Shown here: piece by piece, positions 1,751 through 9,908 of the stretch | Numbering within the stretch: the stretch's first letter is position 1 | How the letters are laid out: each line of letters opens with the position of its first letter | Origin: Escherichia coli | GTDB taxonomy: Bacteria; Pseudomonadota; Gammaproteobacteria; Enterobacterales; Enterobacteriaceae | Reading direction: 5' to 3' (one strand) | DNA: 64,000 bases | Assembly: GCF_044324875.1 (NCBI RefSeq) | Contig: NZ_CP172185.1 | Notes under the pieces: generated by a model | Told to the model about the DNA's origin: nothing | What the model saw: only the letters and a program-made list of their open reading frames with translations | Databases searched by the model: none | Translations under genes and position numbers: made by a program

Positions 1751-2178
1751 TTTTTGATTAATGGTGGGCTTGCTTAAATCTATCCGGCGTCTCTGTGGAC
1801 AAGGAGACCCGCGCCTCGATGAGTTCCGCACCTGATAATCCTAAAAAGACCCTCGGCTTCAGTGAGCCATTTTTTCTGTCAGGTTTTTAATCAGGTCTAT
1901 TTGCCGTTCATGTCATCAATAATCAGTCTTCGCAAAACCAGACAGGTAACTTGTATCTTATTTTTTAAAATAAGCTAATTGAGTTTTGTCAGTATCTATA
2001 TCAGGCCTGATATTCTTTGTGCAGAGCAGTGATTGCCCAGGCTATTCGGGCCAGTTTATTTGCCAGAGCGCAGGCGACAATATTTGAATGCTTATTGTCG
2101 AGTTGCTTTTGAACCCATTCAGCAACTCTGCCCTATTGAACCGCCCCGGGTTTCCTGGAGAGTGTTTTATCTGTGAAC

Positions 2179-3069
2179 TCAGGCTGCCAGATCATCGTTT
2201 CCGATGGAAGCATAATAAGATTTTTCTGCTTCTGCCGGTGGGATATGGCCCAGCCTTTCCAGCAATCGTCGATTGTTATACCAGTCCACCCACGTGAGTG
2301 TGGCCAGCTCCACTTCTGTCCGGTTTTTCCAGCTCTTACGGTGTATTACCTCCGCTTTGTAAAGGCCATTGATGCTCTCCGCCATCGCGTTGTCATACGA
2401 GTCACCAGTACTTCCTGTTGATGCCAGTAATCCGGCTTCCTTAAGCCGCTGTGTGTAGGCCAGCGATACATACTGAGAACCTTTATCACTGTGATGGACT
2501 GTGCCGGACGGTCGACGGGCCCATAACGCCTGCTCCAGAGCATCCAGCACGAATGTCGTTTCCATAGACGATGAGACCCGCCACCCCACGATGTATCCGG
2601 CAAACACATCAATGATGAACGCCACATAGACGACCCCCTCCCATGTGCTGACGTAAGTAAAATCAGCCACCCACAACTGGTCAGGACGTTCTGCCACAAA
2701 CTGACGGTTTACGCGGTCGCCTGCGGCAACGGCTTTCCGGCTGACGGTAGTGCGGACCTTTTTACCCCGGAGAACACCGGCAAGTCCCATAACCGCCATG
2801 AGGCGCGCCACTGTACATCTGGCTACCCTGATTCCTTCCCGTAACAACTGACGCCAGACTTTACGCACACCGTATACCTGATGATTCCCATCGTATACGC
2901 GCAGTATCTCTTTCTTCAGCCAGTCATCGCGCTGCGCACGGGCACTGCGTTTATCCGGATGATGTCGCTGTTGCTGACAGTGGTAATACGTTGACGGGGC
3001 AATATGTAGTTCACTGCATACCGGTCCGACCCCGTACAGCTTACGCAGCTTATCCAGCAGTGGCATCAC
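2179..3069 (-). CDS. IS629-like transposase OrfB (DDE integrase core)
   Basis: 296-aa [33 protein letters not shown]…; 4-nt overlap with orfA. Confidence 0.85.
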
Positions 3070-3392
3070 TTTTTCCAGAGGCGGTCGAACTCCGCCTTCG
3101 CAAAATAAGCGGAAGCCTGGCGAAGGATATCGTTACTGCGGCGCAGTTCACGATTTTCACGTTCCAGCTCTTTCAGACGCTGACGTTCAGCGGTGGTGAG
3201 CCCGCCATCACCGCCTCCGGTATCCCGCTCATGCTGGCGTACCCAGACACGCAGAGTCTCCGGTGTACAGCCAATCTTTGGGGCAATGGAACAAATTGCC
3301 GCCCACTGTGAGTCATATTCGCCCTGACTTTCCAGAACCATACGAATCGCCCTCTGACGGACTTCGGGGGAAAAACGAGTATTTTTAGTCAT
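3066..3392 (-). CDS. IS629-like transposase OrfA
   Basis: 108-aa [34 protein letters not shown]…; HTH and leucine zipper. Confidence 0.85.
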
Positions 3393-3466
3393 TCTGTTTA
3401 CCTCTTTCTCAGGGAGTTTAGTCTCCAGGATTCCCGGGGCGGTTCACTATTGATGCTCCAGCCGCA

Positions 3467-5779: not shown

Positions 5780-6550
5780 ATTCATTGTGATTCCCCTGCT
5801 GAGTGAGTGCATTTCGTACAGTTAACCGCAAAAGGAGGGGGTACTCCATTCCATGAACTGGAAGCCCAGATACGATGCATAGAGTCACCTGATATTAAAA
5901 AGAACGAGGATCTTGAGGACGAGAACCGACGTCCAAAACAGATGCTTGCCGACCTTAGCCTAGAGAACCGGCATTGAAAGACATTATCGAAAAAAGCTTT
6001 AAAACCAGCCTGTAAGCGTGAGCTTGTTACTCATCAGATAACGACATTTGGACTCAGTGTCCATCAGGCCTGCCGGAGTCTGAACCAGAGCAGAACGGTT
6101 TCCCATTACCGTCCGGATACCACGTGGTACGACCCCGTTATTGTGGTGGTGCAGGCAGTGGACGAGCGATATCCTCGATACGGTTTTTCAAAACTTTTTC
6201 AGGTTCTGAGGCAGCAGGTTCGCGGCAAATCGCAGTTATCCGGTCATGCTGCGCATAGATAATGGTTCGGAATTTATCTCTCTAACGCTGGCTGAATGGG
6301 CTGATATACACGCAGTAAAACGGGAGTTTATCCAGCCGGGTAAGCTGACGTAGAACGCTTTTATTGGGCGTTTTAACAGGACACACCGTACAGAAATACT
6401 CGATTTTTATCTGTTCAGAACGCTGAATGAAGTTCTAGAAATTACGGAGAAATGGTTATCAGAATATAGCTATGAACGCACACATGAATCACTGAACAAT
6501 AAGACGCTGGAAGAATATCGACGACACCATTATTTGACCAAGATATAAAA
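5780..6550 (+). pseudogene. Degenerate IS3-family transposase C-terminal remnant
   Basis: Multi-frame translation gives …NGSEFISLTLAEWA… and …YNYERTHESLNNKTLEEY… interrupted by stops. Confidence 0.4.
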
Positions 6551-6707
6551 ATGCATGGAATTAAAACGGGGCATATTTATATATGAATAACACAACTATA
6601 TCGCTAAGGTAAAGGTGTATCCAAACGGAGAATACAGCACTAACAGCATATATTCATCCAAATTAATAAAATATGACCGAGAACATAGAATATTAAACAT
6701 TTTTAAA

Positions 6708-7967
6708 TTATGCTTTTCTCGCTAACGCGTCTATATCCGAAAAATACTCTTTAATTCCCTCTAGGATAGATTCTGCCACTTGTTGTTGGAATCTTGCCGT
6801 TTTCAGTTTGCGCTCTTCCTCAACGTTACTGATAAACGCCGTTTCGACCAGAATGGAGGGAATATCAGGTGCTTTCAGCACGGCAAACCCGGCCTGTTCA
6901 ACCTGATTTTTATGCAGCTTGTTGATTTTACCGAGCTTATTCAGCACCGCTTTACCCAACTTCAGGCTGTCGGCAATGGTCAGAGACTGCACCATATCGA
7001 ACATGGTGTGGTCGACATAGCGGTCACCGCTTTTGCTCACGCCGCCAATCAAGTCCGAGGCGTTCTGGGTTTGTGCCAGATATTTTGCCGCAGTACTTGT
7101 CGCGCCTTTGGTCGAAAGCGCAAACACGGAAGAACCGCTCGGCTGGCGACTGGTAAAGGCATCAGCATGGATAGAAACAAAAAGGTCAGCACGTTGTTTC
7201 TGTGCTTTTGCTACACGCACTTGCAACGGAATGAAGATGTCTTCATTGCGCGTCATGTACACCTTCATATTACCCTCTTTTTCGATCAGAGAGCGCAGAC
7301 GGCGAGCTATTTGCAATACCACGTCTTTTTCGCGTGTTTTGTATTTCCCCACCGCACCGGGGTCTTCGCCACCGTGGCCGGGGTCAAGCATAATGACAAT
7401 CGGACGATCACGCCCTGCTTTACCCGGTTGTGGACCACTTTGTGCTGGCGGCACCTGCTTTTCGAGGTCGCCTTTGTTGTAATCCTCCAGCAGCGCCAGC
7501 AGCGGGTCCTGCATATCCTGTGCATTGGCCGGATAGAGGTCCATCACCAGACGCTCTTTAAACCCGGCGACCGGCGCAAGGGCAAACAGCTGCGGTTTTA
7601 CGTTTTGCTTTAATTCAAAAACCATGCGTACGGTTTGCGGGTCAAATTGCCCGACGCGCGCCGACTTGATGAACGGGTCGTCTGCACGAATTTGTGCCGC
7701 CATCCCCTTGAGTACCGAGTTCAGGTTTACATCTTCGATATCCACCACCACACGTTCAGGGTTACTTAACGCGAACTGCTTATATTGCAGCTGACGATTT
7801 GATTCTACCGTCACGCGGGTGTAGCTGGACGCAGGCCAGACGCGTACCGCCACGACCTGGCTGACCGCAGCCAGGCTGACCTGACTTACGCTCAATAGCC
7901 ACATGGCGCCCGCACCTTGCAGTAAACGACGACGGCTGATTACATAATTATAGTTAGATACCAGCAT
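6708..7967 (-). CDS. amiC: N-acetylmuramoyl-L-alanine amidase, AmiC-like, with twin-arginine signal
   Basis: 419-aa ORF with [11 protein letters not shown] Tat motif and an amidase-3 type catalytic region; ATG at 7967 with an upstream AGG-rich stretch. Confidence 0.85.
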
Positions 7968-8599
7968 ACCTTACCTAAGCAATACAATGTTCAATAATAT
8001 AACTATGCTCTAATAAATTTTTACAGGTGTTTAAAGAAATAATCACACGTATTCTTATCTTTGCAATCTAATCTAATTTTAAATAAAGGTCAATATCTTA
8101 TTTTTTGATATAAGTTTTCTTAAATACCACGATATAAAAACATTTTATTTAAGTGATTTCTTTTAGTTTGTTTTTCAAATAAAAGGGATGTACTCATGAC
8201 ATTTTAAATATGTACATCATGCACAGCAATATTATAGTTTTTTATCTGATTACTGAGAAGTATCTATCAATAGAACAATGTTTTTTAGTTTGTATAGGGA
8301 AGAGTTGGGTTGAATTGAGAATAAAAACTAGAGATTACTGGGGAAGGAACTTTTCAAATCCGAAATCATGGTCTACAATGAAAAAATGATGTTCTAAGTA
8401 TTCCTATCATGAATAAGAATGCACCATATTTTGAATAGTATAATTTTATATTTATATATCCTTTACTGTACGATGATGATATTTTATACCTGAATGACAA
8501 GGGTGTTATTTTATACCACATATAAATTTGCAGAAAATATAAAATGAGAAGCACTGAATAATCGCGGCTTCTGGCTATGATTTAAATGTTTTTACATTT

Positions 8600-8830
<231 letters not shown>

Positions 8831-8831
8831 G

Positions 8832-9908
8832 TCAAGCAGTTATCGGGGTGCTGTTGATCTGCCTGTTTTGATTACGCAGTAATGTATAAACTTCGTGTGA
8901 GATATAGCGCTTCAGGCTGCGTATTGTTTCCATTTTTGTATGCCCTTCCGCTACTCGTCTGGCGACATATTCCTTCGTTTTATCGTCAGTTCGCAAACGT
9001 CCGATGGAAATGATGTGAAGTGCACTATTTGCAGCACGATCTCCACCCCGGTTAAGTCGATAACGATTCGTTTTTCCTGAAGATACGGGAACAGGGCTGA
9101 CACCACACAGTGCCGCAAAACCTGATTCTGATCTTAATCGTTGGGGATTGTCTCCGGCAGTGATCAGCAACTGTGAAGCGCTTTCGTATCCAATAGCATT
9201 ACGTTTAATCAGTGCAGGTGCCAGCTCATCCACAATTGCCGCAATCATAACATCCAAATCAGCGATTTCGTCATGTAACTCGAGATAGCGTCGGGCAAGG
9301 GACTTTAATGAAATACGATAAACGTTGGTAACATTGAGCTATTCACTGGCATCAGGCCGCTAGGATCTCAGAGTCCTGATGAGCTGCATGCGCGTCATAT
9401 TTCTGAGCTGTTCACGTAATTCATCCGGGGCAGAGATAATATTGGAATGGTTAATCTGGAGAGCGACTCTGCGGGCTGATATTGCTGTTTTTCGGCAAGT
9501 TTTTAATACCCGCAGAGACTCAATCATACCATTGCGCGTTTTGGGTGTGACAGTTCTTATTCCGGAGCATGCGGCGTGAGCGGCACATTCAGCATCAATC
9601 GTGTCACTTTTACCCCGTTTGCGTCGCTCCATCCGATCTGGCACAGCCACCTCAAGAACTTCTAACCCGGCATTCTGTAAATAGCGAAGCAGACCTGATC
9701 CATAGGTGCCTGTACACTCAACACCAATTCGCTTTAATGCCCCAAACGAAACCATCCATGCCAGCATCTGCCGGTAACCTTGCCGTGTTGTGGAGAAAAA
9801 CGGGGGCCCCAGAACTTTATTGTTCTGATCTACGACAGCGGCAACGTGCAGATCTTTATGTATATCCACGCCACCCACAACAGCGGTTTCCGTAACTTTA
9901 CCTGCCAT
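8832..9908 (-). pseudogene. IS110-family transposase split into two ORFs
   Basis: ORF 9360..9908 is the N-terminal catalytic part; ORF 8832..9257 is the C-terminal part; roughly 100-nt gap with a frame change. Confidence 0.6.

Follow-up and report, generated by a model that had tools for sequence, protein, structure and literature searches.

AmiC of Escherichia coli K-12 (b2817; PDB 4BIN) has the same architecture as the protein considered here, namely a Tat signal, an AMIN domain and an Amidase_3 domain with a blocking helix. The AMIN domain of AmiC binds peptidoglycan and targets the protein to the septum. In K-12, the gene lies in the order mltA-metZWV-amiC; that it is divergent from argA had rightly been stated in the initial annotation of the DNA. 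AT-rich DNA acquired by horizontal transfer is silenced by H-NS in E. coli and Salmonella. Export of AmiC through the Tat pathway has been established (PMC10268282). Accessory division-type Amidase_3 genes on mobile DNA also occur as plasmid-borne amiA-like genes in Klebsiella, Enterobacter, Serratia and Pantoea. These, however, are of the AmiA type: no AMIN domain was matched in them, identity over the catalytic domain is only 45–50%, and they belong to another lineage than the gene described below.

We analysed a window of 64,000 nucleotides of E. coli DNA (contig NZ_CP172185.1), in which an amiC gene lies among insertion sequence (IS) fragments and orphan DNA instead of at the K-12 position (Table 1). 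In our reading, which we hold with good confidence, this gene is a second, accessory amiC from a paralogue lineage, mosaic with a native-type interior and carried on a 2.09-kb block in an IS-riddled island. Apart from its recombinant history it is an accessory gene of an ordinary kind, and no new mechanism is suggested.

Table 1. Features of the accessory amiC block and its borders (window coordinates)
Feature	Position	Strand	Description
IS3-family transposase remnant	5857..6583 (start approximate)	+	Frameshifted and lacking its N-terminus; borders the unique block on the left
Unique AT-rich 3' flank	6584..6707		124 bp, 29% GC; between stop codon and IS3-family remnant
Accessory amiC paralogue CDS	6708..7967	-	419 aa, ATG start; identical to WP_000961389.1
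Diverged 3' end of CDS	6708..6797	-	Last ~28 codons and stop; paralogue-lineage; GC 38.9%
Amidase_3 catalytic domain	6750..7394	-	Residues 192-406; Pfam PF01520, E 6.9e-52
Interior patch with paralogue-lineage sites	7044..7164	-	nt 804-924
Interior segment	7428..7937	-	nt 31-540; within E. coli native amiC diversity
AMIN domain	7536..7850	-	Residues 40-144; Pfam PF11741, E 2e-21
Predicted Tat signal peptide	7869..7967	-	Residues 1-33; SRRRLL motif; SLA|A cleavage site
Diverged 5' end of CDS	7938..7967	-	nt 1-30; paralogue-lineage sequence
Orphan AT-rich tract	7968..8585		618 bp, 26.4% GC; presumed promoter and 5' UTR region
Shine-Dalgarno-like AGGTAAGG	7969..7976	-	Directly upstream of ATG; read from sequence
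Sigma-70-like candidate TTGACC-17-TAGATT	8065..8093	-	~98 nt upstream of ATG; 9/12, consensus match only
Second promoter-like site TTCTCA-17-TATAAT	8231..8259	-	10/12; consensus match only
Spacer	8586..8672		87 bp, 34.5% GC; between AT-rich tract and IS3-family fragment
Truncated IS3-family transposase fragment	8673..8816	-	Right boundary of the block; 83% similar to ISEc31

A second amiC gene and its predicted protein

The gene had been called amiC-like on first reading, and Pfam and NCBIfam place an AmiC ORF at exactly 6708..7967 on the minus strand. Its product is identical to WP_000961389.1, the protein annotated in NZ_CP033635.1, a record with 100% identity here; it scores 792.6 bits against the NCBIfam AmiC model NF038267, above the cut-off of 700, and stays below the cut-offs of both the AmiA and the AmiB model. 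The stop codons of the island copy and K-12 amiC align, no internal indels separate them, and overall amino-acid identity is 95.5%. Between codons 8 and 389 (K-12 numbering) the proteins differ only by K59Q, which is the one replacement in the AMIN domain, S201P and F335L; the last of these is unique and lies just after the activator-binding region. The remaining differences are at the termini, where the island copy has two extra codons and five replacements at the N-terminus, and 11 replacements within the last 28 residues. Alignment with the E. coli AmiC structure 4BIN is near-identical over residues 36–418.

From island residue 10 on, the predicted signal peptide is identical to K-12 AmiC residues 8–31; it is of the AmiC Tat type, and export is predicted. 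The motifs DPGH, REKD, SIHADA and LVETAF, along with one further 10-residue motif, are all intact, and the Amidase_3 domain takes in the blocking and interaction helix region. In the predicted protein, the zinc ligands, the catalytic Glu and the autoinhibitory blocking helix are conserved. The roles of these residues are assigned from the AmiC structure and from published work (PMC10268282).

Near-identity to the characterised AmiC suggests how the protein would behave if expressed. After export by the Tat pathway, its AMIN domain would bring it to the septum, and the blocking helix would keep it inactive until the LytM activators NlpD and ActS switched it on. The activated enzyme would then cleave the MurNAc-L-Ala bonds of septal peptidoglycan and so supply further amidase capacity, redundant with that of AmiA, AmiB and AmiC. 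This function could be impaired or altered by F335L and by the replacement of the C-terminal tail.

The gene is additional to the native one. Among 5,426 complete E. coli genomes, the block is present in 57, with an identity of at least 99.8%; all 57 carriers have amiC in two places and every other genome has it in one. Carrier genomes keep the normal amiC next to argA. In strain SMS-3-5, for example, the native locus reads mltA-metZWV-(5-gene islet)-amiC at 3.037 Mb, with the divergent amiC-argA pair at 3,036,388-3,039,204, and the extra amiC lies at 3.227 Mb, about 190 kb away, within the pheV island. The island copy is not a positional orthologue of native amiC (metZWV/mltA–argA, divergent from argA). 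Synteny thus confirms the non-native context proposed at the outset and, of the two explanations then offered, selects the accessory paralogue over the rearranged chromosomal locus. The exact island protein was found in 1,828 sample blocks, with the same context in 28 of the 28 contigs read. The literature searched makes no mention of this second amiC. Annotation, pan-genome and MLST pipelines meet two 'amiC' genes in roughly 1% of the complete genomes of E. coli and in at least 1,800 assemblies. The two gene copies, 1.2-kb direct repeats 190 kb apart, could also mediate rearrangements.

The unique block (6584..8672) is bracketed by two truncated IS3-family fragments, with a broken IS110 also present on its right side (IS annotation was taken from RefSeq records identical over 6200..9000). 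The 'IS debris' of the initial annotation is accordingly real on both sides. Its remark that the downstream side is also AT-rich holds for the 124-bp flank and fails beyond it, where the IS remnant has 44.6% GC. IS3-family similarity ends at about 6583, and similarity to the Klebsiella-contig locus described below extends only 9 nt beyond the stop codon; the 3' flank showed no terminator-like site. We rejected a composite transposon, as the flanking IS3-family pieces are truncated pseudogenes, neither is a copy of the other, and the block is not bracketed by long repeats, direct or inverted.

Mosaic structure and the paralogue lineage

One other member of the lineage was found, an AmiC-like protein (P0041) encoded on contig DAGCYQ010000186.1, a third-party assembly deposited as Klebsiella pneumoniae. 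Beyond the island copy, the lineage is thus represented by this one sequence. The two proteins have a common start, ML(V/T)SN..VISRRR, and a common end, YFSD(I/V)(D/E)ALARK(A/V), and both carry Pro where the natives have Ser201. Overall they are 86% identical in nucleotides and 90% in amino acids. The contig gene differs in that its interior is not of the E. coli native type and in that it has neither the TATAAT insertion (see below) nor F335L. Its neighbours also differ, comprising an RHH gene, a truncated colicin M domain, a YebF-like ORF, an IS2-like element and phage tail-fibre genes; the contig ends 2 nt upstream of the ATG. The contig copy is 85–86% identical to E. coli natives, 83.5–86% across Escherichia, and 75–79% to the natives of Klebsiella, Salmonella and Citrobacter. 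By these comparisons the paralogue lineage is distinct and branches near the base of Escherichia amiC.

Searches for further members of the lineage added none. P0041 is a singleton in a protein search of 5.8 billion non-redundant sequences clustered at 90% identity. A degenerate, back-translated pattern of the C-terminal tail had no match in 100,044 species-representative genomes and none in viral contigs; its two matches in metagenomes were both the same E. coli island copy. With the 42-aa tail as query, nothing was retrieved but short pieces of partial AmiC sequences. Neither plasmids nor phages carry the lineage in the records searched, and high-identity 'phage' matches proved to be bacterial contigs or fragments. 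A prophage endolysin or moron was rejected, the lineage being in no phage record or viral contig.

Over its whole length the island copy is 93–95% identical to native amiC. This average conceals segments of different affinity, and the segment trees of the gene disagree with one another. First, nt 1–30 are only about 50% similar to native amiC, to which alignment becomes detectable from about nt 24–27 (window position ~7944) and does not extend upstream of the ATG. Here the island copy has a 6-nt insertion, TATAAT, relative to the contig copy, and agrees with that copy against all E. coli natives at nt 13, 18, 23 and 26. Second, nt 31–540 match native amiC of K-12 and M15 at 98.0% identity and the contig copy at 85.5%; in 200 neighbour-joining bootstraps, the segment was sister to M15 in 167, to K-12 and M15 together in 23, and to K-12 in 5. 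Third, nt 804–924 contain six sites common to the contig copy against the natives, and a tree of nt 780–930 joins the two copies in 114 of 200 bootstraps. Fourth, the 3' end is 69–71% identical to native amiC genes and 88.9% to the contig copy, with which it groups in 200 of 200 bootstraps. A recombination breakpoint was placed at window positions 6795–6802, with a maximum chi-square of 76.2 that none of 5,000 permutations reached. The sites uniting the two copies cluster at nt 13–26, 804–924 and 1173–1254.

As aligned, the gene is therefore a mosaic, in which paralogue-lineage sequence makes up both termini and a short patch in the centre, and everything else lies inside the range of native E. 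coli alleles. Such a pattern indicates homologous recombination or gene conversion between the island paralogue and a resident-type (E. coli-type) amiC. It would mean that an island paralogue and a core gene have recombined, with the interior homogenised and the ends, near the limit of homology, still divergent. The native C-tail is conserved at 27–29 of 30 positions across 75 Enterobacteriaceae species, and both paralogues differ from it at 9–10 of 30. Because no native AmiC tail among the 75 exceeds 22 of 30 matches to the paralogue tail, we take this tail to be a derived feature that was not acquired from the gene of any other species sampled. The recombinant origin of the gene, from the paralogue lineage and an E. 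coli-type amiC, is its most informative feature and was absent from the initial annotation.

Whether the gene has been maintained for a function bears on the main competitor to our reading. By this account, which we consider unlikely but entitled to serious attention, the gene is a functionless, unexpressed passenger, open because it arrived recently in this clone and because recombination with native amiC repaired its interior. The surroundings agree with it, for the gene sits in an IS graveyard, most of its neighbours are pseudogenes, no native promoter lies alongside and the flanks are orphan AT-rich DNA. So does the decay of its ends: outside the exchanged interior, 14 changes run from GC to AT and 4 from AT to GC, and the near-invariant tail has been replaced. 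Moreover, dN/dS between the contig copy and K-12 is 0.06 (0.061), several-fold to about 20-fold above the native comparisons (0.003–0.027). Against it, the contig copy has kept its ORF open despite 180 differences from K-12; when 180 substitutions were simulated under neutrality, the ORF stayed open in just 0.3% of runs. Together with a dN/dS of 0.06, this argues that the lineage has long been under purifying selection. The intact catalytic and regulatory motifs and the wide occurrence of the exact protein in one constant context also speak against a mere passenger. For the island copy itself, the dN/dS of its core against K-12 (0.02) largely reflects native-type sequence, and the carriers are near-identical across the block and so give no power to detect selection. 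Under the accessory-paralogue reading, a housekeeping cell-envelope gene would have been captured by mobile DNA and kept intact in an otherwise decayed pathogenicity island.

A more ambitious proposal is that the island copy is a diverged, separately regulated AmiC, in which the replaced tail, F335L and a promoter in silenced DNA make a conditional extra or altered septal amidase that also exchanges sequence with the core amiC. We regard this as doubtful. If true, it would confer a benefit on the poultry- and human-associated lineage that carries it, and an island gene would shape variation in a core gene of an essential pathway.

A recent duplication within the genome, which would have placed a copy of the host amiC in the island and let its ends decay there without any separate paralogue lineage, would account for an interior that is overall 95–98% identical to E. 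coli natives. We nevertheless think it very unlikely. The diverged termini recur in an independent gene on another contig, which cannot derive from the E. coli island copy because 14% divergence runs throughout the gene. In addition, the interior is nearer to K-12 (98.0%) than to the native allele of its own carrier (96.7%), and among 5,368 non-carrier native alleles the closest match to nt 31–540 is 98.4%, with none at 99% or above.

The AT-rich tract upstream of the gene

The initial annotation had pointed to some 600 bp of strongly AT-rich, foreign-looking DNA upstream of the gene, and a GC profile upholds both the extent and the impression. The window has 50.5% GC; its 618-bp windows average 0.504 (sd 0.052), which places the tract about 4.6 sd low and 24 percentage points below the window as a whole. 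The lowest 618-bp window, 7944..8561 (GC 0.256), overlaps the tract almost wholly. This genuine compositional outlier points to a foreign or orphan origin. Among E. coli genomes the tract was found only in the 57 carriers, at an identity of at least 99.5%. It has no homologues in PLSDB plasmids, INPHARED phages, the Klebsiella-contig locus or elsewhere in the window, and IMG/VR viral contigs held no match to a 28-nt probe taken from it. The upstream DNA is unrelated to that of K-12 amiC, and neither blastn nor tblastn matched the tract to native amiC flanks or argA.

Since no native promoter came with the gene, transcription would, with lower confidence than the steps proposed above, start within this orphan DNA. 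Two promoter-like sites on the coding strand of the gene are candidates (Table 1); the region holds 11 sigma-70-like sites, against 6.3 ± 2.4 in shuffles. The island copy is probably poorly expressed under standard conditions, as H-NS typically targets DNA of such high AT content. Silencing of the tract by H-NS is plausible from its AT content. It resembles known silenced DNA in being AT-rich (26.4% vs 50.5% GC) and in lying in an acquired island, but lacks the high-affinity nucleation motif: none of the 51 window matches to the published 10-mer TCGATAAATT, at up to two mismatches, falls in 7968..8585. The locus thus offers a natural test case of a core gene placed behind orphan 26% GC DNA.

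The suggestion that the tract hides a promoter or a small RNA has fared unevenly, with promoter-like hexamers present and the search for an RNA negative. We give very little credence to the view that a separate small RNA or small protein is encoded in the tract. It contains two ORFs of 59 and 62 aa and several promoter-like sites on both strands, and two overlapping windows at 8100..8259 on the minus strand have marginal folding z-scores of -2.2 and -2.4. However, the z-scores of 30 windows are centred on 0, with -2.4 the lowest and the putative 5' UTR at +0.24. No Rfam family matched the tract at E values up to 1 (the only match, isrN at 6001..6143, lies outside it), and no terminator-like site was found there. 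Both ORFs lack a Pfam match and have the composition of translated AT-rich DNA, and PGAP annotates no feature in the tract. Repeats and tandem repeats in it were at chance level. A presumed promoter and 5' UTR region for the accessory amiC remains our preferred description.

Remaining alternatives and the island setting

The neighbourhood of the Klebsiella-contig copy raises the idea that the gene is accessory to a colicin-M-type bacteriocin module, serving for instance in toxin release or self-protection. On that contig, an ORF with a Colicin_M domain and a YebF/Cmi-like ORF follow 1.3 kb downstream of the related amiC. This is a single example, though, and the ORF covers only profile positions 123–281 and is therefore considered truncated. 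An RHH gene and a spacer of about 0.9 kb intervene, neither the window nor the related loci hold a remnant of colicin M or its immunity gene, and the lineage is on no plasmid or phage. We judge this origin highly improbable. Finally, the notion that IS-mediated rearrangement moved the strain's only amiC away from argA, which the 93–95% identity and the surrounding IS elements might have invited, is refuted by the two amiC places in every carrier, the presence in SMS-3-5 of both the argA-linked and the island copy, and the lack of native-flank similarity around the latter.

The setting of the accessory paralogue can be compared with a described island. GI-pheV of E. coli SMS-3-5 (ST354, phylogroup F) has published limits of 3,197,159-3,289,098 (PMC11537424), and the paralogue falls inside them; the same report mentions neither amiC nor any amidase. 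Carrier records and the window, from its left end on, share a module order of IS graveyard, ibrAB-like genes, sodC, sitABCD and iucABCD-iutA, with iha just past the left end of the window in this series. The window stops short of pheV, and the insertion site of its island was deduced from related genomes. In SMS-3-5, the island is integrated at tRNA-Phe (pheV).

A second amiC in a genomic island

The island amiC adds a previously undescribed member to a well-known family; it sits in a known island and has a neat recombinant history and an orphan AT-rich leader. RefSeq records that are 100% identical to the window across 6200..9000 annotate the ORF as AmiC WP_000961389.1, and its neighbours there are broken transposase genes only. 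The IS debris described in the initial annotation is thus real, with a broken IS3-family transposase gene on the left and broken IS3-family and IS110 genes on the right. Since the IS3-family similarity on the left stops at ~6583 and the right-hand IS fragment begins at 8673, a unique block of 2.09 kb is delimited.

Features of the amiC block and of other regions of the window
Feature	Position	Strand	Basis or remark
amiC ORF, 419 aa, ATG start	6708..7967	-	ORF scan
IS3-family remnant	left of ORF		RefSeq annotation
IS3-family fragment and IS110 pseudogene	right of ORF		RefSeq annotation
Unique block	6584..8672		between IS similarities
AT-rich tract	7968..8585		26.4% GC
Sigma-70-like site TTGACC-17-TAGATT	8093..8065	gene's strand	consensus match
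Sigma-70-like site TTCTCA-17-TATAAT	8259..8231	gene's strand	consensus match
TATAAT insertion	7947..7952	-	codons 6-7
F335L	6963..6965	-	K-12 codon 335, paralogue codon 337
IS3-type element	2140..3446		orfA 108 aa, orfB 296 aa, both intact
isrN (RF01396) match	6001..6143	-	full length, 138 bits, E 1e-31
Autotransporter and tail genes	50373..51968, 52694..53269, 53284..54780, 60871..63873	all -

The non-native context claimed for the gene was confirmed by synteny. The K-12 native amiC lies between mltA-metZWV and argA and is divergent from argA, as stated in the initial annotation, and the island neighbourhood differs from this normal setting. Among 5,426 complete E. coli genomes, amiC is present in 5,425 and has a second place in exactly 57; the same 57 hold the AT-rich tract and the entire 2-kb block at ≥99.8% identity. 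In one of these carriers, SMS-3-5, the native locus occupies 3,036,388-3,039,204 and the extra copy 3,227,446-3,228,705. The second place in all 57 carriers and the native locus kept in SMS-3-5 refute the idea that the native gene was moved. Of the two alternatives offered initially, the rearranged chromosomal locus is therefore wrong and the accessory paralogue correct. One of the 5,483 amiC places in these genomes is on a record labelled plasmid, and one genome has no amiC match. SMS-3-5 also carries, between metZWV and native amiC, a five-gene sugar/PTS islet (3,030,901-3,036,130) encoding a phosphoglycerate dehydrogenase, a KpsF/GutQ isomerase, a MalY/PatB protein, a PTS EIIC and a PRD regulator, which is found in neither K-12 nor strain M15.

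The extra copy of SMS-3-5 sits ~30 kb into an island that begins at tRNA-Phe (3,197,159) with a tyrosine integrase. A 2024 study (PMC11537424) sets the limits of GI-pheV in this strain (ST354, phylogroup F) at 3,197,159-3,289,098 and finds its integrase the most divergent of the set; amiC is never mentioned there. The module order, iha, an IS graveyard with amiC, ibrAB-like genes, sodC, sitABCD and iucABCD-iutA, recurs in the other carrier inspected and also in the window from its left end on, iha being just outside that end. A large assembly collection lists the exact island protein in 1,828 sample blocks, and its IS-rich surroundings are the same in 28/28 contigs read. The IS3-type element is missing at its place in SMS-3-5 and in NZ_CP033635.1, which are otherwise colinear; the IS content of the island thus still varies between carriers.

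A mosaic gene and its paralogue lineage

In the island coding sequence, the initial 7-9 codons and the final 28 are strongly diverged. These unusual ends were found in two retrieved homologues, P0041 and P0002. As P0002 turned out to be the island protein itself in partial form, P0041 is the sole distinct relative among the homologous proteins retrieved. It comes from a 5-kb contig (L004, DAGCYQ010000186.1) of a third-party assembly that was deposited under the label Klebsiella pneumoniae. This contig copy shares 85-86% identity with native amiC of E. coli (83.5-86% over Escherichia as a whole), 79% with the Salmonella and Citrobacter natives and 75% with the Klebsiella native; its origin is therefore an Escherichia-like amiC, and it branches near the base of Escherichia. 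Across 75 species, native AmiC tails agree at 27-29 of 30 positions, yet no native tail agrees with those of the paralogues at more than 22/30, so the shared tail was not borrowed from another sampled species. The shared lineage-specific changes lean towards AT (14 vs 4). A 6-nt TATAAT insertion gives the island protein 419 aa, as opposed to 417 aa in the contig copy.

The island copy sides with the contig copy, and not with the E. coli natives, at sites within nt 13-26, at nt 607 and within nt 804-924 and 1173-1254, with zero such sites in nt 27-606 or 925-1172, and 120 sites (124 in the two-native count) join the island copy to the natives. A maximum chi-square scan located a breakpoint within nt 1166-1173 (window 6795-6802), with a chi-square of 76.2 that 0/5,000 permutations reached. 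Neighbour-joining trees of segments give conflicting placements: for nt 30-540 the island copy nests among the natives as sister to M15 (bootstrap 167/200), and for nt 780-930 and 1170-1257 it is sister to the contig copy (114/200 and 200/200). That the contig copy simply evolved faster is ruled out as the cause by its distance to Salmonella, just 2.6 percentage points beyond that of the island copy. The island interior shares 98.0% identity with the K-12 and M15 alleles, 96.7% with the native gene of SMS-3-5 itself and at best 98.4% with any native in 5,368 non-carrier genomes; recent self-duplication is contradicted by these allele comparisons and by the shared derived termini. The simplest reading is that a gene of the paralogue lineage and an E. 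coli-type amiC exchanged sequence by homologous recombination or gene conversion, the ends being spared because homology stops there.

Against K-12, the island core has a dN/dS of 0.02, which mainly reflects native-type sequence, and the contig copy one of 0.061, several-fold to ~20-fold over native comparisons (0.003-0.027) and far under 1. When the 180 differences of the contig copy were placed at random, just 0.3% of simulations left the ORF open. The lineage was therefore kept as a coding gene, under relaxed but real constraint. That the island copy is a silent passenger, instead of expressed and useful, we consider less likely than not.

The orphan AT-rich leader

The strongly AT-rich 0.6-kb upstream region of the initial annotation was borne out: GC is ~24-28% over 7951..8550 and ~50% on both sides. 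Windows of 618 bp average 0.504 GC (sd 0.052) over the whole window, and the minimum, 0.256, falls at 7944..8561, nearly all of it within the tract. The AT-richness also claimed for the 3' side holds for 124 bp only (29% GC). No relatives of the tract were detected in non-carrier E. coli, PLSDB, INPHARED, the native amiC-argA region, the argA protein, the rest of the window or the contig locus, and a 28-nt probe found no match in IMG/VR. It contains no PGAP feature and no meaningful repeats, and its two small ORFs match no family. It is best described as orphan AT-rich DNA.

In 6100..8800, 11 sigma-70-like sites were found vs 6.3 ± 2.4 in shuffles, and AGGTAAGG stands directly before the ATG. 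The gene's promoter would have to come from the tract. The proposed small RNA fared poorly: the tract has no Rfam family at E up to 1 and no terminator-like site, and folds no more stably than shuffles (lowest z -2.4 among 30 windows; +0.24 for the putative 5' UTR). Two overlapping 120-nt windows at 8100..8259 (-), with z of -2.2 and -2.4, are not significant after 30 tests and have neither terminator nor Rfam match. The H-NS high-affinity 10-mer is absent from the tract at up to 2 mismatches; H-NS silencing would be a reasonable expectation, with composition as its sole basis. Just left of the amiC block, the isrN match lies within a frameshifted IS3-family transposase remnant, so this 'Hfq-binding sRNA' family seems to coincide with IS-derived sequence.

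The protein and mobile neighbourhoods

The island protein scores 792.6 bits against the NCBI AmiC model (cut-off 700), has AMIN and Amidase_3 domains and is colinear with K-12 AmiC, with stop codons aligned and two additional codons near the start. Over codons 8-389 (K-12 numbering), ~45 changes are synonymous and three only are replacements, K59Q, S201P and F335L. Proline is the majority state at position 201 in 133 native AmiCs. Phe335 is invariant in these, and the contig copy has it too; the replacement F335L occurs in the island copy only and lies just after the blocking/interaction helix region that binds LytM activators. The twin-arginine motif and signal-peptide core are the same as in K-12, and the motifs that hold the zinc ligands, catalytic Glu and blocking-helix Gln are intact. 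AmiC is exported by Tat, targeted by AMIN, autoinhibited and activated by the LytM proteins NlpD and ActS (PMC10268282); we infer the function of the island copy from its near-identity to this characterised enzyme.

Carriage as phage or plasmid cargo was not supported by plasmid, phage and viral-contig searches. Genuine plasmids of other genera carry amiA-like genes, a precedent for accessory division amidases on mobile DNA. A truncated colicin M activity domain and a YebF-like ORF occur close to the contig copy, a single case: downstream of this copy, L004 1482..3444 holds an RHH-type ORF, a colicin M ORF of 151 aa with the C-terminal activity domain only (Pfam positions 123-281 of 281) and, in convergent orientation, a YebF/Cmi-like ORF. 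No trace of colicin M or YebF-like genes was seen in the window. Elsewhere in the window, a YadA/Eib-like autotransporter gene directly adjoins prophage tail genes, whose products are a DUF4376 protein, a tail fibre carrying long collagen-like GXY repeats and a host-specificity protein similar to lambda J; IS66 and IS21 copies are inserted among these genes. The DUF4376/tail-fibre end shares 96% identity with L004 at the right end of that contig.
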